From: Leucoraja ocellata
Lineage: Eukaryota
DNA length: 64,000 nt
NCBI GenBank assembly: GCA_036785375.1
Contig: JAWMAR010000242.1
Location: forward strand, 3,534,001 to 3,598,000
Direction of reading: 5' to 3'
Position numbers and translations under genes: made by a program. Below the pieces are notes generated by a model that was not told the origin of the DNA, made no database searches, and saw only the letters and a list, made by a program, of their open reading frames with translations. Shown piece after piece: positions 4,087 through 50,989 of this stretch. Every line of letters begins with the position of its first letter. The stretch's first letter is position 1.

Positions 4087-4287
4087 TTTAAGAAGGAACT
4101 GCAGATGCTGGAAAATCGAAGGTACACAACAAAGCTGGAGAAACTCAGCGGGTGCAGCAGCATCTATCGAGCGAAGGAAATAGGCAACGTTTCGGGCCAA
4201 AACCCTTCCTCAGAGAAAGGGTTTTGGCCCGAAACGTTGCCTATTTCCTTCGTTCCATAGATGCTGCTGCACCCGCTGAGTTTCTCC
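4087..4287. mobile_element. Penelope-derived fold-back mini-element
   Basis: About 70-bp inverted arms (4137-4207 / 4217-4287). 14-bp TSD TGTTAATWTCTGTG at 4073-4086 and 4288-4301. Hammerhead-like core on the minus strand at 4186-4213. Confidence 0.9.
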
Positions 4288-4579
4288 TGTTAATATCTGT
4301 GACAGTTTCAGGTATTAAAATGGGTTGCTTGTGGACAGATGACTGATACTGTGTGGAGATGAAGGCATGGAGATGCAGCTGGATTTCTCTTAACAAGATA
4401 GTTTTATCATCTCTATCATGTCTAGGCTTAAGCTATTGACAAGATTTAGGAACTATTGTTGTTTGAGCAATTAATTACAATACTCATGTCTTTGTAAATT
4501 ATTATTATTAAGTTCAAAATAATACCTAATTGTTAATAATTTATAAATCCTTAATGTGGACTGATGTCAATATTTGATA

Positions 4580-5722
4580 ACTAGTTGGGGAGATGGTACT
4601 ATTTATTGGAATTAAGTAATTTTAATTGGATTGATACCCATTAAAGATGCATATTTATAGCAATTTCCTTTTATGTTAGACTACCAACATTAAATTCCAT
4701 AATTATCAAATCTCTATCTCAAAGTCAGATCTTCTTAATTCCACAGCTTGCCTGCTATTTACAAGTGTTTTTTTTGTTAATCTTTTCGACATTTCATGTC
4801 AGTTACAGCTTTGGAAGCAGTCCCATATTGAAGGACCATGAAAAGCAATTGAGAAAATATATCTGTTAAAAATCAGATGCAAAAGGCACAAATTCTTGAA
4901 CTCAGAATTAACTCCTTAAGTGCTGAATTGTTTTTATGTGACTTTCAAGATGTGTACATTTCATGTCAGGAAAATTATTTCCATTAAAATTTTAAATATT
5001 GAATATTACAAAATAGAATTATAGAAAAGGTTTCATTTGAATCATGAACATTTCTTCTTTCACATCCTTGGAAAGAACTAAACAGCCATTTGCAGGTTCT
5101 GATTTTTGTTGTGGTGCAGTAATACTACTGTTAATCAAAAAATGAATACATCCTCTCTCACCTTTCAAGGTCAGGAGTCTTCTTTTCTAAAAAAAAAGAA
5201 CTGATTAAAAAATATAAAATAATTGTAAAGGCTTGTAATAGAACCTAATGAGTTGATTAATGTGGTATAATTACTGTCTTCAGCTCATTTTAATCAAAAT
5301 ATTATGAATGTATCCACAACAATAAACAATAGAACATTATAGTTTTGAAAATTGACTTGAGTAGACCAACAAAAAATACAGTAAACTACAGCATCTTGAG
5401 TACATTCAGAGTAAATCCTCGTGGATAACCAAATGGTCTTTTCATTTCTTGATGCCAAAACTAAGATAATGTTACCTTTTGTCTAGGTTGTCTACAGTTC
5501 TTCTCTTCAAACAATGCATATTAAATCATTGAAGTGATGGGGAAGCATATTTTACCATTCTGTCATGCCACAGAGCTATTTTATTTATGCCATTAACTTT
5601 GACTAAAATCCAGTATTGATATCTAGGAAAGGCAAAATGTGAAGAACTTGACCACGTTCTCAGACTTTTTCATATTGAAGTACATCAGTTTTCTTTTACA
5701 CAGTTCATTGACAAATAGGCAT
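4580..5722 (-). other. JPH3: Probable JPH3 3' UTR (distal end uncertain)
   Basis: AT-rich, repeat-free sequence directly after the stop codon. Candidate AATAAA hexamers on the minus strand at 5580-5585 and 4602-4607. The true cleavage site cannot be determined from sequence alone. Confidence 0.5.
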
Positions 5723-7350: not shown

Positions 7351-8307
7351 AAATTACTTTATAATGACTTGAAATATATTAAATATATTACCAATTCTTT
7401 ATCATAGCTGAATGAAAATCCCGGAAATCCCTGCAGAATAGTTCTGTGGGAATAATTTCTACAACCTGATTCTAATGCTTCCAGGAGGTGGCTCACTCCC
7501 ACTCTATCAAATGTAATTACAATGGCCTTGAGAAATAAAAATACGCTCATTTGCACCTTGTACGATTTCATAACGCCTCTGATAGCTACTCGTAGAACCA
7601 TGTACTGTATCAGAAACCCATCAACTCTCTCAAGATTCTGCCACATACCTATACAATTTACAATGGCTGTAACCTACTGGTCAGCAATTGTTTGGGATAT
7701 GGGGGATCCCATAAAATGACAGGGAGAATGGATAAAGCCAACACAGACAGGACAGGGGATTTACACCATGCAAACACAAGTTATTTAGTTAGCTTAAAAC
7801 CCAATGGCATGAACATTGAATTCTCCAATTTTAGGTAACGTACCAGAACCACAATTCCACTCATTCCCTCCCCCAACTCTCCTTCCTGTTGCCCACCCGG
7901 TCATGCACTTGTTTCTCCTCTTCCCACCCCTCCCACCTACATTCCTTTCTCTAGTTTCACTGTTCGTATGTCACATCTTTAGTCTTTCCATCCTTGGCTT
8001 TTGATGAACCATCGACTATATGCTCCCTGTATCCACCTATCCTGCCCGCCCTCTCATCAGTCTGAAGAAAGATCCTGGGCCAAAACATCACCTATCCATG
8101 TTTTCCAGAGCTGCTGCCTGACCCTCTCGATTACTCCAGCACTTTGTATCTTTTTTTTTAAACCATCATCTGCAATTCCTTGTTTCTACATTTTGTGCTT
8201 TGTCCAACTCAATTTCTATATGTGTATCTTTAAGCGTTATGAAGGAATGTAAAGCACGTTTTCCATGAATTATTTTATGACTACCTAAGTGGATTGATGC
8301 ACCATGT

Positions 8308-8434
8308 GTGTAGGAAGGAACTGAACATGCTGGTTTACACCAAAGATAGACAAAAATTGTTGGATGTAACTCAGCGGGAGAGGCAGCATCTGGCTGTCCC
8401 ACTGAGTTACTCCAGCATGTTGTGTCTATTTTCC
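8308..8434. mobile_element. Penelope-derived fold-back mini-element (short)
   Basis: Inverted arms (atagacaaaa...gtaactcagcggga / tcccactgagttac...tgtctat). 11-bp TSD ATGCACCATGT at 8297-8307 and 8435-8445. Confidence 0.8.
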
Positions 8435-9766
8435 ATGCACCATGTTGTACATTGTAAAGTCTATGATGTTATTTGACTCGAGGTAGCAAAGTAAGAATCT
8501 CTCTTCAGGGGGAAAAAAAATGAAGAAATATTTCCTTGTCTTTTTCAACATTTAGTGTGTTTCCAAGAAGGCCCAGAAACGGCCATTGTCAAACCCTGCA
8601 GGATGATGGGAGAGAAAGAATTTAAAACTGAAAAGAAAACTAATTTAATGAGAGGATAAGGAATGTTTAATGCTTTCTGCACGATGGATTAATATGCCAT
8701 TGTAGAAGAATATTAATATCTACATGAGAAATTAACAATAATAACCAAGGTTTATCATGCATTATATTTTAAATATTTCAATGTAATATTTCTGAGCATA
8801 GGAATCTTCAAATGACACTATCTGTAGTGTAACGAGCCTTTGTTTCCCTCCTTTGACCTGACTTATATATGAAATCTTATCTGACCAAAATGTGAATTCT
8901 GCTTTTAATCAAATCTTGCATTTTACAATGACAACAAAACAGTTATGCATATCATGCTCCACTGCAGTGGAGATTAAAAGCTGTTTGCTTTATGCAGGCA
9001 CAATCCAAAGATAATTTATAATGTCCTACAGGAACTTAGATTAAGCACATAATGCCAAGTACTGAATCTGAGCCTGGATTACATGGGCCACTTTCATCAG
9101 CCTTTGAACATACTATGAAAAGGGTGCTTGCTGGATACGTATATACTTGAAAAATGATTTTGTAATTAGTGTGTATTAATATTTCCTATACAAAGTAGTG
9201 TTATTTAGATGCAGGTAGCACCGTTCATTTCTGGTACTTCAAATGAAATCCAGTGAGCCTTTAAGGTATAAGCTGTTGCTAGGTAACTACCCAGAAAGCC
9301 AATGACATGCCTGTATTTCATGGCTCAGCAGATTGGAGGTTGTTGTGCTTCTGAAAATGAACTACATTGGGGCGGAAAAAACCTTGCAATATATTGATGC
9401 TTGGATATGAATTGACTTAATAATTAGATATGCCTCCTTGATTCCTTGGTGCTTAACATGAATAAATGATGTATTCATTACAGGATGTGAACAGCTGATT
9501 ACTATAAATTGATTACACCTATCAATTTCATAAAAATATGTTCCCAGCACTGTAATATTATTTTTCTTATCAGGCATATTTCATTACTTACTCTGCACAA
9601 TAGCAGTAGCAGTACACCATCAGAATTAGATTTAGTTAGCTGATGCAATTTGTTATATTGTACTTTATTCCATGTTTTATCCTCACACTTCCACTCAAAC
9701 AAAATTCATAACTCTCTCTACAGGTGGACCTCTCAATTGCATTGGTCAAATGTTCTTTTTATATAA

Positions 9767-10943: not shown

Positions 10944-10959
10944 TTTGGGGAGCTTTTTT

Positions 10960-12341: not shown

Positions 12342-12802
12342 GTTTAGTTTAGTTTATAGATACAGCACGGAAACAGGCCCTTCGGTTCACCGAGTCCGCG
12401 CCGACCAGCGATCCCCGTACACTAACACTATCCTATACACACTAGAGAGAGTATTTACCAAAACCAATTAACCTACAAACCTGAAGGTAGACAAAAATGC
12501 TGGAGAAACTCAGCGGGTGAGGCAGCATCTATGAAGCAAAGGAAATAAGCAACGTTTCAACGCTCATCCTCACCCGCTGAGTTTCTCCAGCAATTTTGTC
12601 TACCTTCGATTTTCCAACATCTGTAGTTCCTTCTTATACCTACAAACCTGTACGTTTTTGGAGTGTGGTTGGAAACCGGAGCATCTGGAGAAAACCCACA
12701 CGGTCCTGGGGAGAACTGCATACAGACAAGCACCTGTAGTCGGGATCAAAACCGGGTCTCTGGCGCTGTACGGCAGCAACTCTACCGCTGCGCCACCGTG
12801 CC
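12342..12802 (-). mobile_element. HE1-like V-SINE interrupted by a fold-back mini-element
   Basis: SINE tail at 12342-12483 and head/V-domain at 12638-12802 join collinearly across the insertion. Confidence 0.88.
12484..12637. mobile_element. Penelope-derived fold-back mini-element nested in a SINE
   Basis: Arms gaaggtagacaaaaatgctggagaaactcagcgggtgagg / cctcacccgctgagtttctccagcaattttgtctaccttc. Perfect 13-bp TSD ACCTACAAACCTG at 12471-12483 and 12638-12650. Confidence 0.9.
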
Positions 12803-14274: not shown

Positions 14275-14523
14275 ATCTGCAACCAAATTGGCAGCATGAG
14301 TTGTAACGTCATCTTTGCCTTGTGGTGCTTTTTAAAGTGAGGGGAGGCAGTGCTGTGAACATGCATACTGAGGTAGACACACCTTTGAGAGTCAGAAGCA
14401 CAGTTACACCATTGGTAGGTATTGAAGTAGACAGGAGCTGCTTTTGTTCTCTGGCCAGGAAACGTCAACAGTGGGAAAAAATAATATTTCTATTACACAT
14501 TGGTAAGGTGGCAAGTTACTTAC

Positions 14524-15407
14524 TGAATTAGATTTATATTGAACCATTGTTTCTTCATCAGACTGAGATATATTTACTGACTGTGAGTTTGGTGATGTAC
14601 TAATGTCATGCCTTGATCGAGGCTCCAGCTTTACATTCATTCTCAGGTTCTCCAACCTCTGTACATTGGGCTCAGAGGGGGACATAAGTATAAAGTTCTC
14701 TTTATTTTGCATTGTGGGCTTTAGCCTCTGTACTCCATAGCTAAGGAAATCTGGATGGTAATCTTCCATCATGTTTCTGGAGCTGAGTTTATTGTAGTGT
14801 TGTTCTGAATATGTGTCTTGCACATAGGAATCCATGCGTTGTAGGGGTTTCATTTCCATTTCATAATTACTAAGTTTTTCTTCATCCTGTTCATGCAACT
14901 GTTTACTGGAATCATGATTATGCAACTGGTAGGATGTCCATGAAAATGTTGGCGACTCGGCCCCCTTTCTGTCAGTGAGTCTATGGTTGTACTTGCATTC
15001 GTTGCCTCTCACCCTGATCTCTTCAACCAGTGACGTTGCGTTTGAGCTGCTGCTCCCTTTGCTGCCTCCTCTACGAGTTCCCGATCTCTGCTTCTCATTC
15101 CACTTGGCAGATCTTGGATAGTCACTCCTTCCCCCTTCCAGCAACATCTGAATGTCCTGCCCTTTGTCACATTCCATGTTCATCTGCCGGACAAGCCTGG
15201 TACCCTTTTTCCTGTACTTTGGTGGCGAGGTGGATGGTGAGGTGGATGACCGGCTTGGCACAGGACTATGTTCGGGAGTGAGATCCGGGGGTGTCGTTCC
15301 TTTCCTGTAGAGCTCTGGACTCTCTTCTAGTGGGAGACTCTCTGAGGAAATTCTGTCGATCTCATTCTCCGTTGAGTTTTGGAGTGTTGGCCTTTGATAC
15401 TCAATTC
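14524..15407 (-). CDS. JPH3: Junctophilin-3, large divergent-region exon (exon 4), 884 nt
   Basis: Lies within ORF 14404..15429(-). Acceptor ttttcccatcAG|GA ATT GAG TAT; donor TCA|GTAAGT. Contains the JPH3 motifs EYQRP, ESPELYRKGTTPxDLTP, DIQMLLEG, ESPxFxWTS, EEKLSNYxMEMKPL, GVQRL, QNKENF and SDEE. Phase 1 start, phase 0 end. Confidence 0.96.
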
Positions 15408-15984
15408 CTGATGGGAAAAGAAAGAACACAAAATATTTAATACATAGCTTCCTGCCCCTTTGTCAACTACCACAGCATTGAATATCCACGGCACAGTTTC
15501 CTCCTGATCTGATTACAAAGGATAATCTCCAACAACCCTGAGCTGTCACGCGGTTCCTCGTAAAACACGTTATCACAGATTAGGTTGAATAAATGGAATT
15601 GACATCAATTGCAATTACCTTTGGATAACCAATAGCTTTGGTGGAGAATTAGCTCCGTATTTGATACAAGGACAGTCACTTCCTGCAACAACTCAATCCA
15701 AGATTCACTGATAGACATCTGGAATATTAGATTGACAACTCTACCATACACGCTATTGTTTTATGACTGCTTTTCCTTTCTAATACATATTGATAGAGTT
15801 TGCAAAAATTAATTTTGGACTTAAGTAGCGTTGACTATCTTCACCTGTGGTTAAGTTAATGCATAATTCGATTTTTTTTAAATTCTGGAATAAATGTAAT
15901 AAAAAAATATTAACATTGCAATTTCACCCGGAGAAATGAAACTATAGTAGATTTTCTATCAAATGTGTAGCAATGACATAGAGT

Positions 15985-17405
15985 GTGTAAGAAAGAACTG
16001 CAGATGCTGGTTGAAATCCAAGGTAGACACAAAATTCTGGAGTAACTCAGTGGGTGAGGCAGCATCTCTGGAGAAAAGGAATGGGTGACGTTTTGGGTCG
16101 AGACCCTTCTTCAAACTGATGCCAGGGGAGGGGCAGGGCAAAGATGGAATGTAGGCAGAAACAGTGATATTAGTGGGAGAACTAGGAAGGGGGAGGGGAT
16201 GGAGAGGGAAAGCAAGGGCTATCTGATGTTAGAGAAGTCAATGCTCATATTGCTGGGGTGAAATATGAGGTGCCGTTCCTCCAATTTGCACTGGGCCTCA
16301 CTCTGACAATGGAGGAGGCCCAGGACAGAAAGGTCAGATTGGGAATGGGAGGGGGAGTTGAACTGTTGAGCCACTGGCTGATCAGGTAGGTTAAGACAGA
16401 CTGAGTGGAGGTGTTCAGCGAAACGATCGCCGAGCCTGCGCTTGGTCTCACTGATGTAGAGAAGTTGACACCTGGAACAGCGGATACAGTAGATGAAGTT
16501 GGAGGAGGTGCAAGTGAACCTCTGCCTCACCTGGAAAGACTGTTTGGGTCCTTTGATGGAGTCGAGGGGGAGGTTGCAGGGGAAGGAACCTAGAGAGGGG
16601 GTGGTTTGGGTGGGAAAGGACGAGGTGACCAGGAAGTTTCGGAGGGAACGGTCTCTGTGGAAAGCAGAAAGGGGTGGAGGTGAGAATATGTGGCCAGTAG
16701 TGGGATCCTGTGGGAGGTGGCGAAAATGTTGGAGGATTATATGCTGTATGCGACAGCTGATGGGGTGGAAGGTGAGGACAAGGAGGACTCTGTCCTTGTT
16801 ACGAGTGGGGGGAGGGGGAGCAAGAATGGAGCTGCGGGATATCGAGGAGACCCTAGTGAGAGCCTCATCTATAATGGAGGATCGGATCCCTGTTTCCTAA
16901 AGAATGAGCACATCTCCGATGCCCTGGGAAAACTTCATCCTGGGCACAGATGCAACGTTAGATGGAGGAATAGGGGATGGAGTCTTTACAGGAAGCAGGA
17001 TGGGAAGAAGTGGAGTCTAGATAGCTATGGGAGGCAGTAGGTTTGTAATAGATGTCGGTCAATAGTCTGTTTCCTGTGATGGAGACGGTGAGATCTAGAA
17101 ATGGTAGGGAGATGTCGGAGATGGTCCAAGTGAATTTGAGTGCAGGATGGAAATTAGTGATGAGTTGATGAAGTCAGTGAGTTCTGCATGGGTCAAGGAG
17201 GCAGCACCAATGCAGTCGTCAATGTAGCGGAGGTAACGTTCAGGGATAGGGCCAGTGTACGCCTGTAGGGATTGTTCGACGTACCCTACAAAGAGGCAGT
17301 CACAGCTCGGGCCCATGCGAGTGCCCATAGCTACGCCTTGGATTTGGAGGAAATGGGAGGAATTGAAGGAGAAGTTGTTGAGGCTAGGGACCAGCTCTGC
17401 TAGGT
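15985..17405 (-). mobile_element. Penelope-like retroelement, 5'-truncated (RT C-terminal part + GIY-YIG endonuclease + pseudo-LTR)
   Basis: RT motifs MGTRMGPS...YLRYIDDCIG (ORF 17095..17328). GIY-YIG-like IYCIRCSRCQLLYISETKRRLGDRFAEH (ORF 16219..16530). Frameshifted. Degenerate hammerhead near 16087-16114. Confidence 0.92.
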
Positions 17406-18154
17406 GGACATGGATACTGTTCAGGGACTGTCATATTGCAAGTGGGAATTTCCGTATTTGCAGTGTCTTCTTAGTCCTAGCTTTGCTGCTTTACAGTTGT
17501 ATAATAGTGTACAATACAATAAAGTTGTATTGCTGTATTGCTGTATTGAATACATGGATCATTGGCCTGCCTCTTTAATTAATATCTCGTGGCATCTTCA
17601 GTACGAACCGAGTCATTCTTAATTCCATTCTGGTCTTCAAAGGATAATTAGGGACAGTTAATGGCAATTGAAAAAGAGCGTGTTGATTTATTTTACTGAC
17701 CTTACATTAAACACTTGTCCTTGCTTCATCTCAGTATTGCAGATTGTTACCTTTCCACCTGCATTGCAAACTTGCTCCCACTTTTCCCTGGAGTCCACTG
17801 TTCGTTCTATCATTGTAATGCTGAAACTACTTTGAAGTTGGAGTTGGTATTTTTTTAAGACTAATCAAATGCCATTTTCTGGTATAAAGTTGGAAAGCCC
17901 AGGCCCTGTGACCAGCTGGGCTCTTCACTTTTGAGTAGATATTGAAAGTGTCTCAGAACTTCTTGGTCTGGAAGTTACTCACTGTGTAAACATTGGACTT
18001 GGCAGGAAAAATGGTTCATCCGTGCAGGTTCATGGTTAATAATCAACGTTAGCGTAGATGGTACAGTAAAAAAAGATCTGCTTAAAGTTTCAAAATGCCC
18101 AGACTTGTTATTTGAACAGGAATCCTGTTCTTGAATGTTGAAAGAAAGCACTCC

Positions 18155-19935
18155 AGATGCTGGTCAATAAACAAAAGGTCACATTTTGTTGGAGTAACTC
18201 AGCGGGTCAGGCAGCATCCCTGGAGAACATGGATGGGTGAGGTTTCGGGTCAAGACCCTTCTTCAGACTGATTGTGGTGGGGTGAAGAAAGCTGGGTAAG
18301 GGGAGAGGCAGGGTCTGCGGGGGAGGGGATGGGTCGCCACTAGTAAGGGAGAGCTTACAGGCAGCTCTTTGTGGAAAATGGACAAAGATAAGAAAGGCAG
18401 GAAGGAGGCTGTGAGACACGGTGGAAGAGTTGTGGGTTGGCAAGCCAGAGGGTGGAAATTGGCGGGGGTGTAGGTGGGGGGGTGGTGAGTGGAGGGGGGT
18501 GGTGAGGGGAGGGGGGGGAGTGGAGGGGGAGTGGTGAGGGGAGTGGGGGGTGGTGAGTGGAGGGGGGGGTGGTGAGTGGAGGGGGGGTGGTGAGTGGAGG
18601 GGGGTGAGTGGAGGGGGGGCGGTGAGTGGAGGGGGGGTGGTGAGTGAGGGGGGATGGTGAGTGGAGGGGGGTGGTGAGTGGAGGGGGGGGGGTGAGTGGA
18701 GGGGGGGTGGTGAGGGGAGGGGGGGGAGTGAGGGGGACTGGTGAGGGGAGGGGGGGGGGGGTGGTGAGTGGAGGGGGGGTGGTGAGGGGAGGGGGGGGAG
18801 TGGAGGGGGAGTGGTGAGGGGAGGGGGGGGTGGTGAGTGGAGGGGGGGCGGTGAGTGGAGGGGGGGTGGTGAGTGGAGGGGGGTGGTGAGTGGAGGGGGG
18901 GCAGTGAGTGGAGGGGGGGGTGGTGAGTGGAGGGGGGGCAGTGAGTGGAGGGGGGGGGTGAGTGGAGGGGGGGGTGAGTGGAGGGGGGGTGGTGTGTGGA
19001 GGGGGGGGTGGTGTGTGGAGGGGGGGGTGAGTGGAGGGGGGGGTGAGTGGAGGGGGGGGTGAGTNNNNNNNNNNNNNNNNNNNNNNNNNNNNNNNNNNNN
19101 NNNNNNNNNNNNNNNNNNNNNNNNNNNNNNNNNNNNNNNNNNNNNNNNNNNNNNNNNNNNNNNNNNNNNNNNNNNNNNNNNNNNNNNNNNNNNNNNNNNN
19201 NNNNNNNNNNNNNNNNNNNNNNNNNNNNNNNNNNNNNNNNNNNNNNNNNNNNNNNNNNNNNNNNGGGTGGTGAGGGGAGGGGGAATGAGTGGAGGGGGTG
19301 TGGTGGGGGGGAGCGGGGAGTGAGTGGAGGGGGGATGGGGAATGTAGGGGGGGGGTGGTGAGTGGGAGAGAAGGGGGGGTAGTGAGTGGAGGGGGGGGTG
19401 AGTGGAGGGGGGTAGTGAGTGGAGGGGGGGTGAGTGGAGGGGGGGTGAGTGGAGGGGGGGTGGTGAGTGGAGGGGGGGGTGAGTGGAGGGGGGGTGAGTG
19501 GAGGGGGGGTGGTGAGTGGAGGGGGGGTGGTGAGTGGAGGGGGGGGTGAGTGGAGGGGGGGGTGAGTGGAGGGGGGTAGTGAGTGGAGGGGGGGGGTGAG
19601 TGAAGGGGGGGCGGTGAGTGGAGGGGGGTAGTGAGTGGAGGGGGGGGTGATGAGTGGGGGGGGTAGTGAGTGGAGGGGGGGGTGAGTGGAGGGGGGTAGT
19701 GAGTGGAGGGGGGGGTGAGTGGAGGGGGGTAGTGAGTGGAGGGGGGGTGAGTGAAGGGGGGGCGGTGAGTGGGAGGTGGAAGTCCAGGTGGGGCACAGGG
19801 GAGGGAAACGGTGGGGGGAGAAGATAAGGTGGGGGTGGGGGGGGGGGGAGGGGGGGGGGGTTGGAAAGGTTAACTAAAATTGGTGTATTCAATGCTCATA
19901 TCCTTAGCTATCCAAAGAGAATATGAAGTGCTGTT
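18155..19935 (-). mobile_element. Penelope pseudo-LTR fragment expanded by a G-rich satellite
   Basis: pLTR end and hammerhead motif at 18155-18270; GIY-YIG-terminal remnant at 19870-19935; the satellite lies between them. Confidence 0.7.
18462..19860 (+). repeat. G-rich tandem repeat, unit about (GGT)GAGTGGAGGGGGG (15-18 bp); includes gap 19065-19264
   Basis: Directly visible tandem units with runs of 6-9 G. It produces the spurious Pro-rich and Gly-rich ORFs. Confidence 0.97.
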
Positions 19936-20392: not shown

Positions 20393-21226
20393 TGTGCTTA
20401 TTGGTTACAATTTGAGGAATATGATGATGCTACTGAGTATGATATGCCAATATACCAGCTAGCAACTGACCTTCTCCATAAAGACTTGGTCATTTACTAT
20501 AAATTGTAATTTCTTTACCTGTCCGTTATGGACTTACAGCACATAATACAATAATATTAAAGTTCTGATCTTGAGAATATCACATTTTTGAATTAAGGCA
20601 GTCTGGGTGTTTATTACTATTTCCATCACAACGGCCCATTTTGCAATGATCTACAATTAGGTAAATAACTAATTATATGCTTTAATTTCAGGTCATCCAA
20701 GTAAGATGTTTCATATTTGTTTCAGAATGCTTCAATCTATAATAACTGAACGTTTCATTCAGTTCTCTAAATTTTTAAGAAAGTTATGGGCTTTTGCCTG
20801 TTCTCGATCACAGCTTGTGTGTTAATCATTGGAAAAGCAATAGGGAACAAGATGCTAATTTCCAAGTATGAAAATTACCATAACGTTTTTAATACTGAAG
20901 ATATGAAAGTGAATTAGGTGTCAAATTAAAGATCTTTTTATGCTTTATCTGATTTTTAGAATCTCAAAATTTTGTAACATTCCTAGTTATTGTGGTAAGA
21001 TTTCCATTTACTGTTTTACATTATTCTCATTGGTGACCCTCGGGCTATCCTTGATCAGACTTTGCTGGCTTTACCTTGTACTAAACATTATTCCCTTATC
21101 ATGTAATCATGTATTGTCTTTCAGCTGACTGGGTCGCACGCAACAAAAGCTTTTCACTGTACCTTGGTACACGTGACAGTAAACTGACCTGAACTGTCAT
21201 GTTATTCCTGGTAACCTTTTAGTCAT

Positions 21227-21433
21227 AGACACAAAATGCTGGAGTAACTCAATGGGACAGGCAGCATCTCTGGAGAGAAGGGATGGGTGACGTTTCTTCA
21301 GATCTGAAGAAGGGTCTCGACCCGAAACATCACCCATTCCTTCTCTCCAGAGATGCTGCCTGTCCCGCCGAGTTACTCCAGCAATTTGTGTCTATCTTCG
21401 ATTTAAACCAGCATCTGCAGTTCCTTCCTGCAC
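21227..21433. mobile_element. Penelope-derived fold-back mini-element with hammerhead core
   Basis: Inverted arms. TSD AACCTTTTAGTCAT / AACCTTTAAGCCAT at 21213-21226 and 21434-21447. Core CTGAAGA-A-GGGTC-TC-GACCC-GAAAC-ATC at 21304-21331. Confidence 0.85.
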
Positions 21434-33180: not shown

Positions 33181-35200
33181 CCATCATGTAGGTTTAGTTT
33201 GCTAATTTTTTAACTTTACACTCGGGTATTTTTGAAACAATTCTAACCTGTTGATGTTTGTATAAATCCTTCATGTTATTCTCCTTTTCAATTTCAGCCT
33301 CAAACTAAAATGAGAGGAAGTAGTGTTTACTTCTTAGTCCCAATTTAAAATTCCAACTGTGTAAGAATGATTAATTAACGTTCTCTTAACGTCAAATAAA
33401 TGATACAAGAGGAAGGTTAATTAGGTCCATAAATGTAATACGCATGCTATCATAATGGGAGATTTATGCCAATAAATCTGGTGAAATTACCATTCAAACC
33501 TGAGATTGAATTTTTTTTTTAAATAGATAAGGACGGCAGGGTAAGGTGACCATGGATGACCAAGGAGGTCGTAAACTTGGTCAGGTAGAAGGAAGCATAT
33601 GTTAGGTTTAAGAAGGTGACCTCAGATGTAGCTGATGAGGAAGATAAAGCCAGTAGGAAAGAATGTAAGCGGGCGATTAGAAGGGCCAAGGGTGGCCATG
33701 AAATCTGATTAAAGAAAATCCTTAGGCACACATTAAAAAATATCAGGGTGACCAGGGAAAATATAGGAACACTCAAAGATAAAGGAGGAAATCTATGCTT
33801 GGAGTTGGAGGTTGCAGGTGAGGAACTAAATGAGTACTTATCTATATTCACCGAGAGAAGGACTTCGAAGATAGCGAGACCAGTGTGGAGAATACAAATA
33901 TGCTCGGGCAGTTTGAGATGGTGAAGGAGGTGGTACTGAGACTCTTGAAGAACATTAATGTGGATATATCCCCAGGACCTGATGGAATCTATCCCAGTTT
34001 ATTGAGGGAGGTAAGAGAGGAGATTCCGGGAGTCTTATCAAAGATCTTTGCTTCTTCTCTTGTCACAGGGCAGGTCCCAGAGGACTGGAGAGTGGCCAAT
34101 GTTGTTCTTTTGTTTAAGAGAGGAAGTAGAGAGAATCTAGGGAACTATAGGCCGGTTAGTCTCATGCCTGTGGTAGATAAACTATTGGAGAGAATTCTTC
34201 GAGATTGGATTTACTCCCATTCGGAAGAGAATGGACTAACTACAGATGGCCGGCATGGCTTGTACACGGTTGGTCGTGGCTCAGTAACTTGATTGAGTTT
34301 TCTGAGGATGTGGTTAAGGAGATTGATGAGGGTAGCGTGGTGGATCTTGTATACATGGATTTTGGGAAGACTTTTGATATGGTTGATCATGGTAGGCTGA
34401 TCCAGAAGATTAAGATGTACAGGATACACGAGGACTTGGTCGTATGGATTCAGGACTGGCTTAATCAATAAAAGACGGACGGTTCTGGTGGAAGGAAGTT
34501 CTGGCTGTAGGTCTGTGACCAGTAGAATTCTGCAGGGATCTGTGCTGGGACCTCTGCTGTTTGTGATACAAGTGACCTGGATGTGAATGTAGATGGGTTG
34601 GTGAATATATTTGTTGATGACACCAAGATTGGAGGAGTTGCAGACAGTGAGGAATGCTGTCAGAAGATTCAGTGGGACATGGCTGCAGAAATGGGAGGAG
34701 AAATGGCAGATGGAATTTAACCTGAGGATGTGTGAAGGTGGTTGCACTTTGGGAGGTTAAATGTAAGGAGAAAGCAAACAGTTAATGGCAAGACCCTTAA
34801 TTAACAGCAGTAATGTGCAGATGGATCTTGTAGTCCAACTTCATAGTTCACCAAAGTTGCAAATAGTTGCACATGAGATGGTAAAGAAGGCATCTGGTAT
34901 TCTTGCCTTCATTGCTAACGGCATTGAATATAAAAGCTTTATAGGACTTTGGTTAGGCCGCATTTGGAGTTTTGAATTCTGTCCAGATCACCCCATTAGA
35001 CGTGGAAGCTTTGGAAAGGGTGCAGAGGCCTTGAGCAGTGGCAGAAGACTCATTTGATAGGTCTCGCAGCAGCAGAAGGCTGCCGGGATACATCGCAGAG
35101 CAGGCCGCAGGAAGAGCCGGTGGGTCCATGAGCGGTGGCAGACTGGGCTCACTGCCACGGAGACAGACATAGCGGGCCCCATCCTGCATGGGGAAGCTCA

Positions 35201-35940
35201 GATGCTGCAGGGGGCAGCTGGGATGCTGCAGGGGGCAGCTGGGATGGTGCAGGGGGCAGCTGGGATGGTGCAGGGGGCAGCTGGGATGGTGCAGGGGGCA
35301 GCTGGGATGATGCATGGGGGCAGCTGGGATGGTGCAGGGGGCAGCTGGGATGGTGCAGGGGGCAGCTGGGATGGTGCAGGGGGCAGCTGGGATGGTGCAG
35401 GGGGCAGCTGGGATGCTGCAGGGGGCAGCTGGGATGGTGCAGGGGGCAGCTGGGATGCTGCAGAGGGCAGCTGGGATGCTGCAGGGGGCAGCTGGGATGG
35501 TGCAGGGGGCAGCTGGGATGCTGCAGGGGGCAGCTGGGATGCTGCAGGGGGCAGCTGGGATGGTGCAGGGGGCAGCTGGGATGCTGCAGAGGGCAGCTGG
35601 GATGCTGCAGGGGGCAGCTGGGATGGTGCAGGGGGCAGCTGGGATGCTGCAGGGGGCAGCTGGGATGCTGCAGGGGGCAGCTGGGATGGTGCAGGGGGCA
35701 GCTGGGATGCTGCAGGGGGCAGCTGGGATGCTGCAGAGGGCAGCTGGGATGGTGCAGGGGGCAGCTGGGATGCTGCAGGGGGCAGCTGGGATGCTGCAGA
35801 GGGCAGCTGGGATGCTGCAGGGGGCAGCTGGGATGGTGCAGGGGGCAGCTGGGATGCTGCAGGGGGCAGCTGGGATGCTGCAGAGGGCAGCTGGGATGGT
35901 GCAGGGGGCAGCTGGGATGCTGCAGAGGGCAGCTGGGATG
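35201..35940 (+). repeat. 21-bp GC-rich minisatellite, about 35 copies (GATGSTGCAGRGGGCAGCTGG)
   Basis: Directly visible tandem array with essentially two variable positions. Confidence 0.98.
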
Positions 35941-36366
35941 TATCCAGCGCCTTCATGATCGGCTGCAGGTGACGCCCCTGGGACATAGAGGTGGTCGGGC
36001 GAGGAGAGGGACGTGGGTTCACAGGGCGAGCTGGTCGATGATGATGAGGGAACAGCAGCCTGGGCTTACCCGGATTGGGTGGCTCTCCAGTATATTGAGT
36101 GCCTGGACTTTGAACTTTTCAAACATGCCACCAAAGTATTGCCACATGCACGCGTGAACTATGCAAAAAGAATCTGACCGTGCAGTGTACACGTGACAAT
36201 AATGAACCATTGAAGAGGATTACAGTGTTTCAGCTGCAGGGAGAGGTTGGATAGATTGTTTTCTGTAGAACGTTGGAGCTTGAGGGGAGATATGATAGCA
36301 GGATATAAAATGATGACGGGTGTAGAGACGGTAGATGGTCAGAACCCTTTTCCCAGTAGCTATGGA

Positions 36367-38857: not shown

Positions 38858-39004
38858 GGACTATGACATTCAACAGCATTATGTTGGTTGAGACCCCTGC
38901 CATCTGTCTTGTGGAGATCATCAATGATTAGAAACTTAATCAGGTGTTAGATAGTTCATTAGCCAATAAATATTTCAGTTTGAAAGTAGATCAGAAATTA
39001 AATG

Positions 39005-39185
39005 TTTAAGAAGGAACTGCTGTTGCAGGAAAAACCAAAGGTGGACAAAAGTGCTGGAGAAACTCAACGGGTGAGGCAGCATCTATGGAGCGAAGGAATA
39101 GGTGACGTTTCGGGTCTCGTCGCCTATTCCTTCGCTCCATAGATGCTGCCTCACCAGCTGAGTTTCTCCAGCACTTTTGTCTACC
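39005..39185. mobile_element. Penelope-derived fold-back mini-element
   Basis: About 65-bp inverted arms. Perfect 14-bp TSD TCAGAAATTAAATG at 38991-39004 and 39186-39199. Confidence 0.92.
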
Positions 39186-39808
39186 TCAGAAATTAAATGA
39201 TCTGCAGTTCAAAATCGGACACCCAGGCACTTTCCAAGTTCTATCAGTCATATGTCAGGACGATGGGTTAACACCTTAACTTGGTTTGAGAAGATGGGTA
39301 TATGCTGAATGATTATTGATTGCTTTGTATTTAGGCTGGGGGAAAACACCACTACAATATCACAACAGAACACATTTACACACAGTGCGATGGCATTTTG
39401 ATACTTTTTGTTCGGAATACATCTGCTTGTGAAGCTATTATTTCAGTTTTACTATATTAATGGAACATGCTTTGTTTTCGCATTTAGATTCTACTTGCAT
39501 TAAATGTGTTCTGTATTCCTGCAGTATAATTCATCCTTTATATTCTTTTCATTGTATAGAGCAGCACAAGAAAGTGGACAATGACATTTTTGTAGATGTA
39601 AGGATTTTAATTGGGATTTTATAAAACTACTTGGAAGGTGGATGCTATAGATAGAATTCTGAGCTAATGCATGTGGTTGTAATGAAATTGAACATATATA
39701 TTACTTATAGTGTTGAATTATTAATTTTCATTCATTTAATTTCAAGGTTTCTGGCACCTAAAAAAAGAAATAGGTAATCAAGGATTAATCCATGTTAGTT
39801 TCATGTTA

Positions 39809-40087
39809 AGCCACTGTCCCACTTTCCCGAGTTACTCACAAATTCTCCTGAGTTTTGCCCTTGATTCAAACTCGGAGATGCCAGCCGTAGGTACTCGGGT
39901 CTATCTATTTTACTAGTGGCGATTTTTCAGCATGCTGAAAAAAACATCCTGACTTAACTCATGCCCCGAGTACCTACGGCTGGCATTACGAGCCACTATG
40001 AAACATCTACGGACATTCTCCGAGTTTGAATCAAGGGGAAAACTAGGGAGAATTTGTGAGTAACTCAGGAGAGTAGGACAGGGACCA
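39809..40087. mobile_element. Palindromic MITE, PIF/Harbinger-like
   Basis: Termini CTGTCCCACT.../...AGTAGGACAG with about 65-bp imperfect TIRs, an inner inverted pair atgccagccgtaggtactcggg / cccgagtacctacggctggcat, and a central palindrome tttttcagcatgctgaaaaa. Confidence 0.85.
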
Positions 40088-41560: not shown

Positions 41561-41662
41561 AGTACGATAGGTGATGTTTTGGGTTGGAACCCTTCTTTTC
41601 ATCTGAAGATGGGTTCCAACCTGATACGTCACCTATTCATGTTCTCCAGAGTTGCTGCCTGA

Positions 41663-41856
41663 AGGGCCTGTCCCACTTGGGCGTCATTTACGTGTCACGC
41701 AGATGGCGCGCAAAGATTTTGTACATTCCAATATCCTGGGGCGCCGCTCGCGACCGCTTGTCACTGTCTACATCACCACGCACCATGCGCGTGTCGTGAC
41801 GCATAAACGATGTCGCGTAAACGACACACAAATGGCGCCCAAGTGCGACAGGCCCT
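41663..41856. mobile_element. PIF/Harbinger-like MITE (194 bp) inserted in a Penelope pLTR fragment
   Basis: TIRs AGGGCCTGTCCCACTTGGGCGTCATTT / AAATGGCGCCCAAGTGCGACAGGCCCT. 3-bp flanks TGA/TTA. The host sequence gctgcctga|ctcgctgagttactcc rejoins. Confidence 0.88.
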
Positions 41857-42029
41857 TTACTCGCTGAGTTACTCCAGCACTTTGTGTCCTTTTGTACAAA
41901 CCAGCATCTGCAGTTCGGGTAAGATTAATTATGCTAATATTCATGTACATGCACAGAAGAAAGTGGAAAAAATCCAACATGACATGATTGATTTCCTCTT
42001 TAAACATTCAGATGATGCCACTAATAATG

Positions 42030-44620: not shown

Positions 44621-44829
44621 CTAGTCTGGATGATCTTGACAATGTCCAATATAACCGAACCATAACCTCTATACTTATGTCTTCAACTCGCCCAGCATAG
44701 TTGATAATATTCTACCAATACACAATCACTTCTCCAAAGGCTGACTTCACTACATATAGGTGACAACAAGGTGAAACCTTCAAAAGGTAAAACACTGTAC
44801 AATGTTGTTGTTACCTTGTTGTTGCATTT

Positions 44830-45350
44830 GTGTAGCATCTTTTACATCCTTGATGGAATATTCTAAAACATTTTGCAGCCAGAAAAGTGTATGTTAAACA
44901 GGACAGTGTAAATAATGTATAGCCAGTTTGTACACAATAAGGTGCCATAAATAGCAATATGATAACAACAAGATAATCTGCTTTTCTGGTGTATCGGAAG
45001 GAACTGCAGATACTGGTTTACACTGAAGATAGACACTAAATGCTGGAGTAACTCAGCGGGACAAGCAGCATCTCTGGAGAGAAGGAATGGCCCCAAATGT
45101 CACACATTCCTTCTCTCCAGAAATATCCTGTCCTGCTGAGTCATTCCAGCATTTAGTGTCAATTTGCTTTTCTGATACTGACCAAGGTGTAAATATTGAC
45201 CAGGACACTGAGGATAGCTCACCTGGTCTTCATTCAAAAGTGCCACGGCAGCATCTTTCTCCATCCGAGAGCAGGTGAGGCCTTGCCTCAACATCTCATC
45301 TGAAAGATGGCATCACTGACACTGCAGCAGTCCCACACAACTGAACTCTT
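44830..45350 (-). mobile_element. DeuSINE (SacSINE1/AmnSINE1-like), interrupted by a fold-back element at about 44989-45164
   Basis: Minus strand ctgctgcagtgtcagtgatgccatctttcagatgagatgtt...gtggcacttt...gtgtcctggtcaatatttac...cagattatcttgttgttatcatattgctattt matches the recalled Deu domain. The insert is flanked by TGCTTTTCTG at 44979-44988 and 45165-45174. Confidence 0.75.
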
Positions 45351-45979: not shown

Positions 45980-46225
45980 CTGTAAGGAAAGTGAAGAGTT
46001 ACAGATCTTTAACATCAATGACATACCCACTCACCAACGTGTCAAAATCAAAGCACTATTGTGACCAAGTCTACAACTTCCATTCCCCATTTGAATGGAA
46101 GATGAAGTTCATCTTGCTGATAAGTCACACCTTAGGTTGTCATTCCTATCTTTTCTATCCTAAACACAAAGGGAGTTTGGCCATTATGTTTTTGTAAGAA
46201 TAAACCCATTATTAGTTTACTTGTT

Positions 46226-46396
46226 TAAGAAGGAACTGCAGATGCTGGAAAATCGAAGGTAGATAAAAATGCTGGAGAAACTCAGCGGGTGAGGCAGCAT
46301 CTATGGAGCGAAGGAAATAGGCAACGTTTCGGGCCAGAAATGTTGCCTATTTCCTTCGCTCCATAGATGCTGCCTCACCCTCTGAATTTCTCCAGC
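46226..46396. mobile_element. Penelope-derived fold-back mini-element
   Basis: About 60-bp inverted arms. 15-bp direct repeat ATTAGTTTACTTGTT at 46211-46225 and 46397-46411. Confidence 0.9.
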
Positions 46397-46869
46397 ATTA
46401 GTTTACTTGTTCTAAAGAATAAAAGTTAGATTGCAAACAACTCTATCCTTTGTCACCAGTCCACCAATTTTGGATCCATATCTAATGTTTATCTTAATTA
46501 TCGGAACAAATATTTTCTGTGCTATAACCTCACACAAAATTATCAAAGGAAGGTTTGATTTTGTGTTTTTCTTATCTACATGTTTTTTACACTCATTGAA
46601 AGTTGAACTTGATTTTACAATAACAAAACTTTTCACCATTGACATTAAACAATCAAATCAAAAATTGTGAATATATACTAATAACAGGAAAAGCATATTT
46701 CCTAAATATGTCAGAACAGATGAACAACCCGTAGTTCAGACATAGAGCAAGGATACAAACTCTTCACCCATATTGTTGGCATCGTGCTCACCTATACTAA
46801 TCCCATTTTAGCTCTTGCACCCCCATTGACGTACCACCCATCTAGAAATGCAGCATTCTTATAAGAAAC

Positions 46870-48720
46870 TCGAGTCATAGTCATACAGCATGGAAACAGG
46901 CCATTCGGCCCAACTCATCCATGCTGACAAAGACGGCCTATCGAAGTTAGTCCCATTTGATTGCATCAGGCCAATATTTCTCTAAAACTATCCATGTCCC
47001 TGTCCAAATGTCTTTTAAATTTTGTTTAGTTAAGTTTAGAGATACTGCATGGAAACAGGCCCTTCAGCCCACTGACTCCACGCCGACCACCGATCACCAA
47101 TTCAAATGTTTTTATTGTACCTGCCTCAATACATCCTCTGGCAGCGCATTCCATATACCACCACCCTGCGTTCCATATACCACCACCCTGCGTTTGAAAA
47201 GGTTGCCCTCCCAGGTTCCTGTTAAATCTTCCCCCTTGTCTTATACCTACGCCCTCTAGTTCTTGATTCCCCTCCCTCACCCAATCCATTCACCCCATGG
47301 TTTTATACAAATATAATATCACCCCTCAGCCTCCTGCATTGCAAAGAATAAATACCGAGGCCCAACCTCTGCCTATTGTTCAGGCCCTCAAGTCCTGACA
47401 CCATGCTCATAAATCTTCTCTGTACTATATCCAGCTTTGTGCCATCTTTCCCACAGCAGGGTGACCAAAACTAAGCAGAATAGTTCACGTATGATCTCAC
47501 CAATGTCTGGAACAACAGTAGCATCATGTCCCAACTTCTTCACTCAAATCCCTGACGGATGAAGCATTGTAAGCCGAAACCCTTCTTCACGACCTATCTG
47601 TGTGCGATGCCTTCTTCAGGAACTATGCACTGAACTCTTAGATTCTACATCTCCCTACTCAACATTACCCAGAATCCTTCCATGCACAATGAAGGTTTGA
47701 CTTCCCAAAATTGGAGAAGCCCTGCTCTCATCAGCCTTCTTGGTTATTTCTTCAAATAACTCATCCAAATTTGTGAGATTCAATCTCCATTGCACAACCC
47801 CTATCTACCCACGTCTTTGCAAATGCATGTTTATCTTATCCCAGAATCTCAGAATCATCCCAGAATTGGCAGTGGAGGCCAATTCACTGGATGCTTTCAA
47901 GAGAGGTAGATTTAGCTCTTGGGGCTAACGGAATCAAGGGATGTGGGGAAAAAGCAGGAAACGGGGTACTGATTTTGGATGATCAGCCATGATTGATCAT
48001 ATTGAATGGCAGTGCTGGCTCGAAGGGCCGAATGGCCTACTCCTGCACCTATTTTCTATGTTTCTAATTAATTGGCTAAGACTTATCTGAATTAAACTCT
48101 GTTCGCCATTCGGCAGCCCACTTACCCAGCTGATCAAGATCCTACTGTCATTCTTGATAAACATCTTCACTACCTATGATACCACCTATTTTAGTGTCAT
48201 CTGCAGACTAACGAATCATGCCTTGTACATTCCCATCCAAGTTATTGGTAAAGATGACAAACAGCAATGGGCCCTTGTACCGATCCCTGAAGCACACACA
48301 CGTCACAGGCCTCCAGTCTTCTTAACAAAGGCCTTGCAAAAGTCCTTACAGATTATCTCTATGGCCCTGCCCTCATCAGCCTTCATCGTTACTTCATCAA
48401 AAACTCAATCAAATTTGTGAAACTCGATCTCCAATTCACAAAACCATGCTACTACCCACATCTTTCAAGGTGCATGTATATCTTATCCCTCAGAATCCTC
48501 TCCAGTAACTTTCCTACCACAGGTGTTAGGCTTACTGGTCTATTGTTCCAAGGTTTTTCTTTGCAGTCCTTCTTAAATAGAGGCACAACATTAGTAATCC
48601 TTCAGCCATCCAGCACCTCACATATATCGAACGATGATTCATGTATCTCAGCTAGGACTCCTGCAATCTCTTCTCTAGCTTCCCACAGTGTCCTTGGATA
48701 AATCTGATCAGGCCTGGGAT
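46870..48720 (-). mobile_element. Degenerate, fragmented CR1 LINE with nested short SINE/CR1-tail pieces
   Basis: Reverse-strand remnants of the RT and C-terminal region. Plus-strand CR1 tail at about 47855-48065. Confidence 0.75.
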
Positions 48721-50784
48721 GGTTCCAAAGGCCCTGTTATTGTCATGTGTGCCAATTAAGGTGCAGTGATATGCGAATTATCATACAGCCATACTAAAAA
48801 AAGCAACAAGACACACAACTACATAAAGGTTAACATCAACATCCACCACAGTGGATTTCCCACATTCCTCACAGCGATGGAAAGCAATAAAGTCTAATCT
48901 TCTTCCCTCTTTATTCTCCCGCGGTCAGGGTGATCGAAGATCCCGTGTCGGGGTGGTCAAAGTTCCTGCGACCTGGAGCTCCTGAAGCCGGTCCCCAGCA
49001 GAGGCTGCTAGTTAGATAGTTATTTACCTTCATAAGTCACAGGTGTCCAGCATCTACTAGGCTATAACGCAGAATGCCCTTGAGACAACTCCATTAAAGT
49101 TCCCAAGTTTCCAAGTCTTTTGTGTTTCTCCTCAATAAAATAAAGGATAAATATTCATTGCCCATCTCCTGTGGCTCCACATGTCTTCGCCCCCTCCTCG
49201 CGGCCTACCACCTGGATTGGTGCGGCCTTTCCTGCCAGAGACCGGCCAGAGCATCAGCTTCAGCAGCGGCACAGCACGGGATTCCATCGCGGAGCGAGCG
49301 GTGCCATGTTGGAGCTCCGGAGTGCTGGGACTGCCGAATTTGACACTGTGGAGCTGTGGTCTGCAGAGCTTCCAGCCGCGGGCGGCGCTGACTTTCCTGT
49401 CGCGGGCGGTGCTGTCTCTGACTTGACGTTGACGTTTCAGGTTGAGACCATTCTTCAGTCTGAAGAAGGGTGTCGACCCTGAAAGGTCACCATTCCATCT
49501 CGCCAGAAATGCTGTATGACCCGCTAAGTTACTCCAGCATTTTGTGTCTATCTTTGGTGTAAACCAGCATCTGCAGTCCCTTCCAACACTTTCTATTATA
49601 CTATCTTTTTAAAGCTATTTAGATAAAAGATTGAGTTGTAATGAGGAATATTGAGAAGAATGTAATTTTTGTTTGAATTTTCAAATTAATTTTGAACATT
49701 CAGCGATTTAATTAATCTGTTTACTGAAAGAAAGCTGTTTCATTATCTAAAAGTCAATAAAGGAGATGGTGACATCATCACTAGGTACTGTAGCTTTTTA
49801 CTTAATGACCAACTTCAATGAAATGGCGCAGTTCAAGTTTTGGTTTCATAAATCATTAATGTTTGCTTCGTAATCAAGGAGAATAAATCAGTGAACCATC
49901 AGTCTTAGTTCATGGCAACTCCTGGAGAATATGATGCCATCTTTACTCCACTCAAGCGAGACATTTTGCATTAAAATAACCTGTACCCATTTATTGTTTT
50001 TAATTGCTCTTAATTACAATAAATATCATGAACATTCCATGATGAAAGTTATTATTTTCCCAGTTTTTTGATGTCTATTGATTAACCAATATTGGTTAAT
50101 TTTTGGAATGGAATTGAATACTTTATCGTCATGTGACAATCACAGTGAAATCCTTTGCTTGCATATGCATGGTATGCAAATAGTTACAAAGTACCCCTGC
50201 CAGCTCAGCCTTTGTTCTTCCCCCTCCCCCTCCCCATGGACTTCCCCCACGCCCTCATCGACTGCCGACCGCAGGTTGACCCACGAGGCTCCCACTGTCA
50301 CCGAGGCTCCCACCATTGGCGAGGCTCCATTTTAACTTGCACTAAACGATATTCTCTTATCCTGTATCTATACACTGTAAATGGGTCGATTGTAATCATG
50401 TATTGTCTCTCTGCGACTGGACCTGTAGCTTTTCACTGTACCTCGGTACACGTGACAATATACTAAACTGAAGTTCTGAAACAAATAAGATAAATCAAAC
50501 TTGCTTTGGAAGCTAACAAGGGAATGGAAAGTGGGTTAAAATCAAACTTATCGATGAAAACAATTTATCAGTCAGCACTTGTTATTGATTCATTGCAAAA
50601 AAAGTATTACTTTTAGAAAAATCATGATGAAGTATACAAGTAATGTATTCTATGTACTATGTTCTGCGTTTTATGAAGTAACCTTTCATCTTTTTTGTTT
50701 TAATTGAGGTAGGATGAGGGAACTGTCTAATATGAGGGTGAGAACACCCATTGGAGAGCAAAGGAAAGGATAATTAGTTGAAAA

Positions 50785-50989
50785 TAGATACAAAAGCTGG
50801 AGTAACTCAGCGGCACAGACATCATCTCTGGAGAGAAGGAATGAGTGATGTTTCAGGTCGAGACCCTTCTTCTCGACACAAAACATTACCCATTCCTTGT
50901 CTCCAGAGGTGCTGCCTGTCCCGCTGAGTTACTCCAGCTTTTTGTGTATATCTTCAGTTTAAAGCAACATCTGCAGTTCCTTCTTACAC
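50785..50989. mobile_element. Penelope-derived fold-back mini-element
   Basis: Inverted arms with the turn in a degenerate hammerhead. AAGGATAATTA duplicated at 50766-50776 and 50990-51000. Confidence 0.82.

Follow-up and report, generated by a model that had tools for sequence, protein, structure and literature searches.

A 64,000-nucleotide (nt) stretch of Leucoraja ocellata DNA on contig C242 of the 3.44-Gb genome (JAWMAR010000242.1, positions 3,534,001 to 3,598,000; hereafter the window) carries eight short fold-back insertions, here called stubs, in which two pieces of the same segment of a Penelope-like element (PLE) stand head to head inside one pair of target-site duplications. Our analysis showed that stubs are real, abundant and mostly not made by a complementary DNA (cDNA) that snaps back on itself, and their value lies in the mechanism they record. 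They are likely to be one-off insertion products of endonuclease-bearing (EN+) PLEs, made by twin priming with run-off at the 5′ end of the RNA. Twin priming is favoured because each stub typically has one end of each of two kinds, the arms are staggered, the flanking repeats are true duplications, and the cut site of a hammerhead ribozyme motif in the segment is read through. Priming from two ends is the firmer part of this reading and has a good probability, while the chance that the transcript's 5′ end sets the inner boundary of the arms is about even.

Element positions are given relative to the hammerhead motif, with 0 as the base after which it would cleave; the first base of the hammerhead core is then −27, and the A of an initiator-like TCAGT is −30. 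The first query was a short direct PLE copy at 60219..60571 of the window. A profile of the leader segment, built from 124 genomic copies, was used to resolve the arms at a threshold of 28 bits, with 800 kb of reversed or complemented DNA as the control. The genome sample consisted of 152 stretches of 10 kb at round coordinates (142 on large contigs and 10 beside the window) plus the window, giving 1.584 Mb, and loci chosen by homology were excluded from every count of it. There were 807 strong profile matches in the sample and 0 of at least 28 bits in the control. Adjacent strong matches were head-to-head in 150 pairs, tail-to-tail in 7 and tandem in 20. After weak partners had been added and duplicates removed, 175 fold-backs were counted, about 110 per Mb; by extrapolation, the whole genome would hold stubs on the order of 10^5 if the sample represents it. 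Their lengths are mostly 105–251 bp.

The parent of the stubs appears, judging from its sequence, to be an EN+ PLE with a single frame holding a reverse transcriptase (RT) and, at the C terminus, a GIY-YIG domain. The 815-amino-acid (aa) frame of one locus (L066) matched RVT_1 (E 4.7e-6) and GIY-YIG (E 9.8e-4), both slightly below the Pfam cut-offs, and the leader segment was found 3′ of this frame. In a young family, units of 3,946 nt are arranged in tandem with 99.7–100% identity and contain a 1,221-aa frame, whose ATG is located at +137, that is, 137 nt past the cut site of the motif. Therefore the segment −30..+100 is both the end of the pseudo-long terminal repeat (pLTR) and the 5′ leader of the following unit of this intact PLE. 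The PLE origin of the insertions, which the original prediction had proposed, is borne out by the RT and GIY-YIG frames and the tandem units that carry the same segment. Its description of each insertion as a pLTR end joined to a nested partial inverted copy holds for the pLTR end, which is also the leader of the next unit, but not for the nesting, as the arms are mostly staggered.

Further features of EN+ PLEs were found: tandem units serving as pLTRs, an optional 30–40 nt tail at one end, an inverted 5′-truncated copy at the 5′ end together with a target duplication, and a minimal hammerhead motif in the pLTR, with core boxes around a 4-bp stem II and U-A / U-G variants. Stem I of the motif has only about 2 bp. 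The motif was identified by eye and by pattern; an Rfam scan of the window gave no hammerhead family match and only sub-threshold microRNA matches to the hairpins, and folding of the leader RNA gave z = −0.12 with a predicted fold that is not a hammerhead. No Pfam family was found in the window's own broken frames, and the initial 700 aa of the young frame, searched against PDB sequences, returned 0 matches. An upstream ATG at +23 was rejected as the frame start: the frame that it opens in the young family is short and stops near the tail-less site described below, and the long frame has its start at +137. Loci L226–L234 and L237 showed many identical intact 1,221-aa frames and 100% identical tandem arrays. 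By its sequences, the family seems to have been active very recently or to be active still.

The arms begin at two fixed places. Their 3′ ends cluster at +62..+68 and +97..+101, and in 64 of the 74 fold-backs with duplications one arm (the tail arm) begins near +100 and the other (the tail-less arm) near +64; there was one copy with two tail ends and one with two short ends. Ordinary non-inverted copies close at the same two places (among those with duplications, 21 tail-less and 9 with the tail), also in the young arrays, and +64 is therefore an end in its own right. The stretch from +64 to +100 is the known PLE tail (PMC8557442). In the Anolis element, two start sites of reverse transcription bound the tail (PMC11167929).

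It had been proposed that the cDNA snaps back and copies itself. A folded-back cDNA can copy only what it holds, and therefore its second arm must nest in the tail arm. However, among 65 copies with duplications the tail-less arm is the one that extends further 5′ in 46 (by at least 10 nt in 38) against 14 for the tail arm (p = 4e-5), and this excludes a single cDNA folding back for those copies. When the duplication filter was dropped (n = 101), the tail-less arm was deeper in 63 copies and the tail arm in 28, with 10 ambiguous (p = 3e-4). Self-priming on an antisense template, the published proposal for such junctions (PMC3846280), also needs a nested second arm, so the staggered arms contradict that explanation too. 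Later deletion was rejected as the cause of the stagger, since it would favour neither arm and there was no age trend: with copies grouped into thirds by age, the ratio did not change (21:10, 21:9 and 21:9 from youngest to oldest; rho 0.14, p 0.16). Some copies have a tail arm that ends at +49 to +79 and a tail-less arm that extends to −20 to −33, which is the classical twin-priming layout. Among eight perfect palindromes in young loci, seven of them picked by BLAST, the unpaired centre base was traced by eye to the tail-less arm in six (L253–L257 and L243) and to the tail arm in two (L244 and L245).

Analysis of the inner ends revealed no mark of a cleaved template. Arm ends at −2..+2 numbered 17 of 350, matching the rate in the 20 positions around them (63 ends). 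The cut site is crossed by 237 of the 350 arms, which end at −3 or further upstream. Single copies ending at 0, +1 and +2 numbered 1, 1 and 2. As there is no excess of ends at the cut and most arms cross it, the RNA template was not cut at the motif and the cut site was read through. This agrees with the in vitro use of unprocessed, that is uncleaved, RNA by the Anolis PLE protein (PMC11167929). The stubs are not ribozyme-delimited, and the proposed stop at a cleaved ribozyme end fails. A stop at the ribozyme fold fares no better: a block would be expected at its 3′ foot, but the ends pile up beyond its 5′ edge, with 111 of 350 at −33..−27, about 30 nt upstream of the cut site at the initiator-like TCAGT. 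The claim that the arms turn within or next to the motif stood in part, as the symmetry axis lies between −33 and +3 in 124 of 175 fold-backs; against it, the window copy at 8308 has no hammerhead and that at 12484 has only the 3′ half. The turn positions, which the original prediction had wished to see plotted against the cut site, thus lie mostly in this range.

The boundary at −30 is not confined to fold-backs. Among 451 single copies, 72 continue into the upstream untranslated region, and 165 of the remaining 379 end at −33..−27. Identity to the element in the fold-back arms drops between −30 (A in 72 of 111) and −31 (C in 44 of 111) and is at background by −34; in control copies that continue upstream, it is 60/71 and 62/71 at these two positions. 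The TCAGTCT at this boundary fits the initiator consensus. A rotifer pLTR contains an initiator-like TCACT (PMC3846280), and an internal promoter without a TATA box is known from Drosophila Penelope (PMC2377424). In a relative, RNA reads had joints between opposite strands and loose ends at −30 (792 reads in X24) and −29 (545); these features reflect stubs with the same boundary in the relative's transcripts and not a start site. A splice-acceptor boundary at −29/−28 was considered and rejected, as identity shows no step from −28 to −29 and the copies have no upstream exon sequence in common. As a separate observation, in L226 the cDNA strand has a series of G tracts just upstream of the stop (beyond −33), which could form a quadruplex.

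The two arms of one copy agree in subfamily in 81 of 96 pairs (chance 0.27), and the other 15 were assigned to different subfamily models. Rare non-CpG variants were common to both arms in 104 of 929 cases within copies (11%) versus 262 of 4881 between copies (5%). One RNA copied with strand displacement is probably the template, favoured rather than settled, because like/like ends are nearly absent, the tail arm reaches less far, and long arms end matched. The suggested check of whether arms of one copy are more alike than arms of different copies gave a divided answer, with variants shared twice as often within copies and median distances that differ little.

Duplications were called at a score of at least 7.5 and were found in 74 of 175 fold-backs versus 10 of 350 mismatched flank pairs as the control. 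They are 8–20 bp long with a mode of 13–15, hence not of a fixed short length, and are 64% AT versus 56%. Contig C546 carries a 96–98% identical duplicate of the window region (L238–L243 against window 3397–52968). Seven of ten window copies could be compared there by both flanks, and all seven, including the 4087 copy, are common to both; for the other three, both flanks were not found in the C546 stretches (39005 lay outside the stretches compared). The 12484 copy and the left arm of the 52828 copy are present in C546. That contig also has an extra 216-bp fold-back (L243:7342-7557), absent from the window and flanked on both sides by a 21–25 bp sequence that occurs once in the window, at 52577..52601, which is the empty target site. 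The single copy of the flank there indicates that the flanking repeats were made at insertion, and they are therefore true target duplications, in agreement with the original prediction. Stubs are thus still polymorphic between duplicated regions. C546 is a duplicate or a second haplotype, with many other presence/absence differences from the window, of 57 bp to 3 kb. In contigs of three related organisms compared with window 3600–4800, none joins across the 4087 copy among the matches listed.

From these data, the following course of insertion can be proposed. The enzyme would cut the two target strands at a distance of about 14 bp, and a separate cDNA would be primed by each of the free DNA ends, at the tail site (+100) for one and at the tail-less site (+64) for the other, both on uncleaved RNA and probably on the same molecule. 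The +64 cDNA would usually run off the RNA 5′ end at the initiator-like TCAGT (A at −30), and the +100 cDNA would have to displace it, hence falling short more often. The two cDNA 3′ ends would then be joined via microhomology, often the TCAG-T-CTGA palindrome, or via filler. Priming on the downstream leader of a tandem transcript may give kilobase inverted copies by the same reaction. The Anolis PLE protein is predicted to be a dimer, and it cuts and extends both strands and starts at two internal sites that match the tail (PMC11167929). Kilobase head-to-head PLE palindromes were seen in L235 and L236; that in L236 has 3.2-kb arms, the tail at one end, the tail-less site at the other, and a 16-bp duplication.

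Several observations weigh against this proposal. No clear duplication was found for 101 of the 175 fold-backs, and the profile stops at −33 with pairs limited to at most 40 nt apart, so that long-armed copies are under-counted. The tail arm is deeper in 14 of the 65 copies with duplications (5 are ambiguous), and a centre-base pattern search of the unbiased sample, which also picked up junctions other than perfect palindromes, pointed to the tail arm in 5 cases and to the short arm in 1. Symmetric long arms (776/778 in L236 and −175/−175 in L249) fit snap-back equally well. As for a single RNA, the median arm distance is 0.194 within and 0.22 between copies, a modest difference, the partner is the nearest arm in only 8 of 96, and the 4087 copy has a rare variant in one arm only, for which two RNAs or later gene conversion are possible explanations. 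As for the transcript end, the RNA reads of the relative showed no pile of read starts and are swamped by stub copies, and the sign of a cap G is weak: in fold-backs a G precedes the A in 9 of 16 non-templated cases (p = 0.02), and in single copies in 11 of 29 (p = 0.21). A palindrome at −32..−24 could itself attract junctions.

These points bear on four other explanations. That the RT stops at the hammerhead, at a cut end or a fold, and the cDNA snaps back is very improbable as the general source. The position of the symmetry axis, the short palindromes and short inverted fillers at junctions, the 14 copies with a deeper tail arm, the long symmetric arms of L236 and L249 and the published self-priming proposal (PMC3846280) all suit it, and snap-back is possible for a minority of nested or symmetric copies. 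It is opposed by the lack of excess ends at the cut, the 237 arms that cross it, the deeper tail-less arm in 46 of 65 (regardless of age, which argues against a stagger arising later), the fixed outer end of the second arm near +64, the centre base supplied by the tail-less arm in six of eight palindromes, and the 8308 copy without a hammerhead. Lower still, and almost certainly to be dismissed, is a MITE-like or passenger element, in which one hairpin master is amplified as a unit (MITE, miniature inverted-repeat transposable element). Stubs are short and abundant with inverted ends, and near-identical perfect palindromes centred on −28 recur. But the 101 two-ended copies (one end of each kind) fall into 78 junction classes, the largest with 5 members, the duplications vary from 8 to 20 bp, each of the five subfamily models yields fold-backs, and the 4087 junction has a single near-identical match over its full length, namely the duplicate of that locus. 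A master is refuted as the general source, though small amplified sub-lineages could exist. In this the original prediction was right, as it had argued for repeated de novo formation and against a true MITE.

The remaining two explanations keep priming from both target ends. In one, each end is primed on a separate RNA, or on separate leaders of one tandem RNA, held by a dimer. This is rather unlikely, even though the Anolis protein is a predicted dimer that extends both strands (PMC11167929), the arms overlap, which a single RNA permits only with strand displacement, the 4087 copy has its arm-specific rare variant, and 15 of 96 pairs fall in different subfamily models. Free choice of start on two RNAs predicts many like/like ends, but there was one of each kind in 74; moreover, the tail arm falls short more often, the arms of long copies end within 2 nt of each other, and shared rare variants are in excess. 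The other, somewhat less unlikely but still doubtful, ascribes the −30 boundary not to the transcript end but to palindrome-guided joining, a splice acceptor (a pyrimidine tract and CAG, at −29), or stalling in the C-rich tract upstream. It draws on the perfect palindromes centred on −28, the pyrimidine tract and CAG directly upstream, the Drosophila Penelope intron that ends at the hammerhead (PMC4209133), and the young copy L247, which ends at −39 within a G run. Neither the missing identity step at −28/−29 nor the missing shared upstream exon agrees with it, and partnerless single copies end at the boundary as well (165 of 379). Twin priming with run-off at the transcript end is the reading we prefer.

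The architecture itself has been published: inverted pLTRs, tails, duplications and hammerheads have been described for PLEs (PMC8557442, PMC3846280, PMC2377424, PMC4209133), and the stubs are a miniature form of this known insertion structure. Published EN+ PLE units (PMC8557442, Fig. 2 legend; Adineta Pen2a, PMC3846280; Drosophila virilis Penelope, PMC2377424) have in common with the parent element the RT and GIY-YIG frame and tandem units, and share with the stubs a head-to-head inverted segment, a 30–40 bp tail at one end, a duplication and a pLTR hammerhead motif. Here, in contrast, the whole insertion is often only two leader pieces (105–280 bp), and the duplications peak at 13–15 bp rather than the 8–10 bp of Adineta (PMC3846280). 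Anolis Poseidon PAc in vitro likewise has two internal RT starts bounding the tail, cuts and extends both strands, uses uncleaved RNA and has AT-rich targets (PMC11167929). Its start sites lie inside the frame, whereas those found here are in the 5′ untranslated region, 37–73 nt before the ATG, and the available description of PAc does not tie the two sites to the inverted structure.

Twin or dual priming in L1 (PMC2837659) likewise leaves two inverted pieces in one pair of about 14-bp duplications, with a microhomology or filler joint. L1 arms do not overlap, the first is primed on poly(A), and the second begins at variable sites, whereas stub arms start at fixed sites without poly(A) and usually overlap. 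The stubs work like an L1 twin-priming product and are not an L1 product. With the minimal hammerheads of metazoan PLEs (PMC4209133) they share a minimal core and a palindromic ACGU replacing helix III; in Schistosoma, pairs of the motif lie 100–700 bp apart on opposite strands (PMC4209133). Non-LTR retrozymes (bioRxiv 10.64898/2026.07.22.740005) are tandem, each unit with a whole hammerhead, whereas fold-backs are head-to-head, often without a whole core, and bear no sign of a cleaved template. The retrozyme organisation was found instead in a separate tandem derivative, L246 (G000:C9:3394300-3395600). It is a young non-autonomous array with a 299-bp unit (−58..+239) carrying the hammerhead motif, is 100% like the young family, and ends at the tail-less site inside a 15-bp duplication.

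The origin of the tandem and inverted ends of PLEs is stated to be open (PMC8557442, PMC3846280), and the steps that follow priming are left without validation in PMC11167929. Our literature search found no paper that applies twin priming to PLE inverted ends; supplements, such as that of PMC11167929, and most subscription papers were outside this search. The stubs form a large natural record of the PLE insertion step, whose geometry separates candidate mechanisms and gives predictions testable in the existing Anolis in vitro system. A wider reading, which we put forward tentatively and with somewhat less than an even chance for the whole, is that PLE integration is obligatory two-ended priming on one RNA, with the tail and the inverted pLTR reflecting the two start sites. 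Stubs would then correspond to retroviral strong-stop DNA, as 'strong-stop' cDNAs made from the capped leader, with the difference that they are integrated from the two ends of the target; full-length copies would arise only when the downstream leader of a read-through tandem transcript is primed, and the hammerhead core would lie just inside the promoter. Counted from the initiator-like A, this core has its ACGT at +27..+30, similar to the downstream element reported for Drosophila Penelope. Stubs account for hairpins that could be taken for MITEs or microRNA precursors in annotation, and are probably dead on arrival.

In the window, an inverted-repeat search returned the eight insertions as its top pairs, and the profile search showed that each consists of two arms of the same PLE segment, the first on the minus strand and the second on the plus strand. 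The flanks showed target duplications of 11–15 bp. All eight lie where they had been predicted, except that one starts at 50777 and not at 50785, and each has its own duplication, as was also predicted, of 10–15 bp, exact or with a few mismatches. The fold-back at 4087..4287 has its tail arm on the minus strand at 4087–4214 (+99 to −28) and its tail-less arm on the plus strand at 4217–4287 (−21 to +49), with a 14-bp duplication with one mismatch (4073–4086 / 4288–4301). That at 8308..8434, without a hammerhead, has a minus tail arm (+100 to +23), a plus tail-less arm (+26 to +69) and an exact 11-bp duplication (8297–8307 / 8435–8445). The staggered copy at 12484..12637 is nested within another short repeat and has a minus tail-less arm (+66 to −7), a 9-nt filler, a plus tail arm (+29 to +98) and an exact 13-bp duplication (12471–12483 / 12638–12650). 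At 21227..21433, a minus tail-less arm (+62 to −7) and a plus tail arm (−28 to +100) are separated by a 6-nt filler, a short inverted copy of the turn, and the duplication is 14 bp with two mismatches (21213–21226 / 21434–21447).

The fold-back at 39005..39185 has a minus tail arm (to −12) and a plus tail-less arm (from −3); its exact 14-bp duplication (38991–39004 / 39186–39199) was missed by the automated pipeline, which over-ran the right end of the copy. The staggered copy at 44989..45164 has a minus tail arm (to +3) and a plus tail-less arm (−10 to about +61), with a duplication of 10 bp exact, or 14 bp with one mismatch (44979–44988 / 45165–45174). The fold-back at 46226..46396 joins a minus tail arm (to −13) to a plus tail-less arm (−7 to +52) within an exact 15-bp duplication (46211–46225 / 46397–46411), and the staggered copy at 50777..50989 joins a minus tail-less arm (to −23) to a plus tail arm (−16 to +100) within an exact 11-bp duplication (50766–50776 / 50990–51000). 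A ninth copy, suggested at about 52830–53075, is probable at 52828..53073: both arms are present (minus tail-less to −13, about 33 nt of filler, plus tail −24 to +101), but the 10–11 bp duplication near 52818–52827 / 53074–53084 is degraded and was seen by eye only. This copy was not returned by junction refinement, though the profile sees both arms.

Two fold-back remnants were also found. That at 49430..49589 consists of a minus stub (+1 to −27) and a plus tail arm (−28 to +100) that turn at the TCAG-T-CTGA palindrome, and its flanks have no detectable duplication. In that at 41566..41916, the plus arm is interrupted at +33 by a different inverted-repeat element (41662–41857, with 35-nt arms); this and another at 39814–40081 (65-nt arms) are possibly true MITEs. 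A 5′-truncated PLE copy on the minus strand (15984..17408) retains the end of the RT / GIY-YIG frame (16219–16896), the 3′ untranslated region and the leader with the tail. The short direct copy at 60219..60571, on the plus strand, has the frame end, the 3′ untranslated region, the hammerhead motif (60442–60469) and the tail. At 22977–23348, two head-to-head PLE arms, both tail-less, are separated by about 215 nt of unrelated retroelement-like sequence. A 352-aa open frame on the minus strand at 14404–15462 resembles a large host exon; it gave no Pfam family and no usable protein atlas match. Long simple or tandem repeats at 34953–36157 and 18207–19895 yield spurious open frames.

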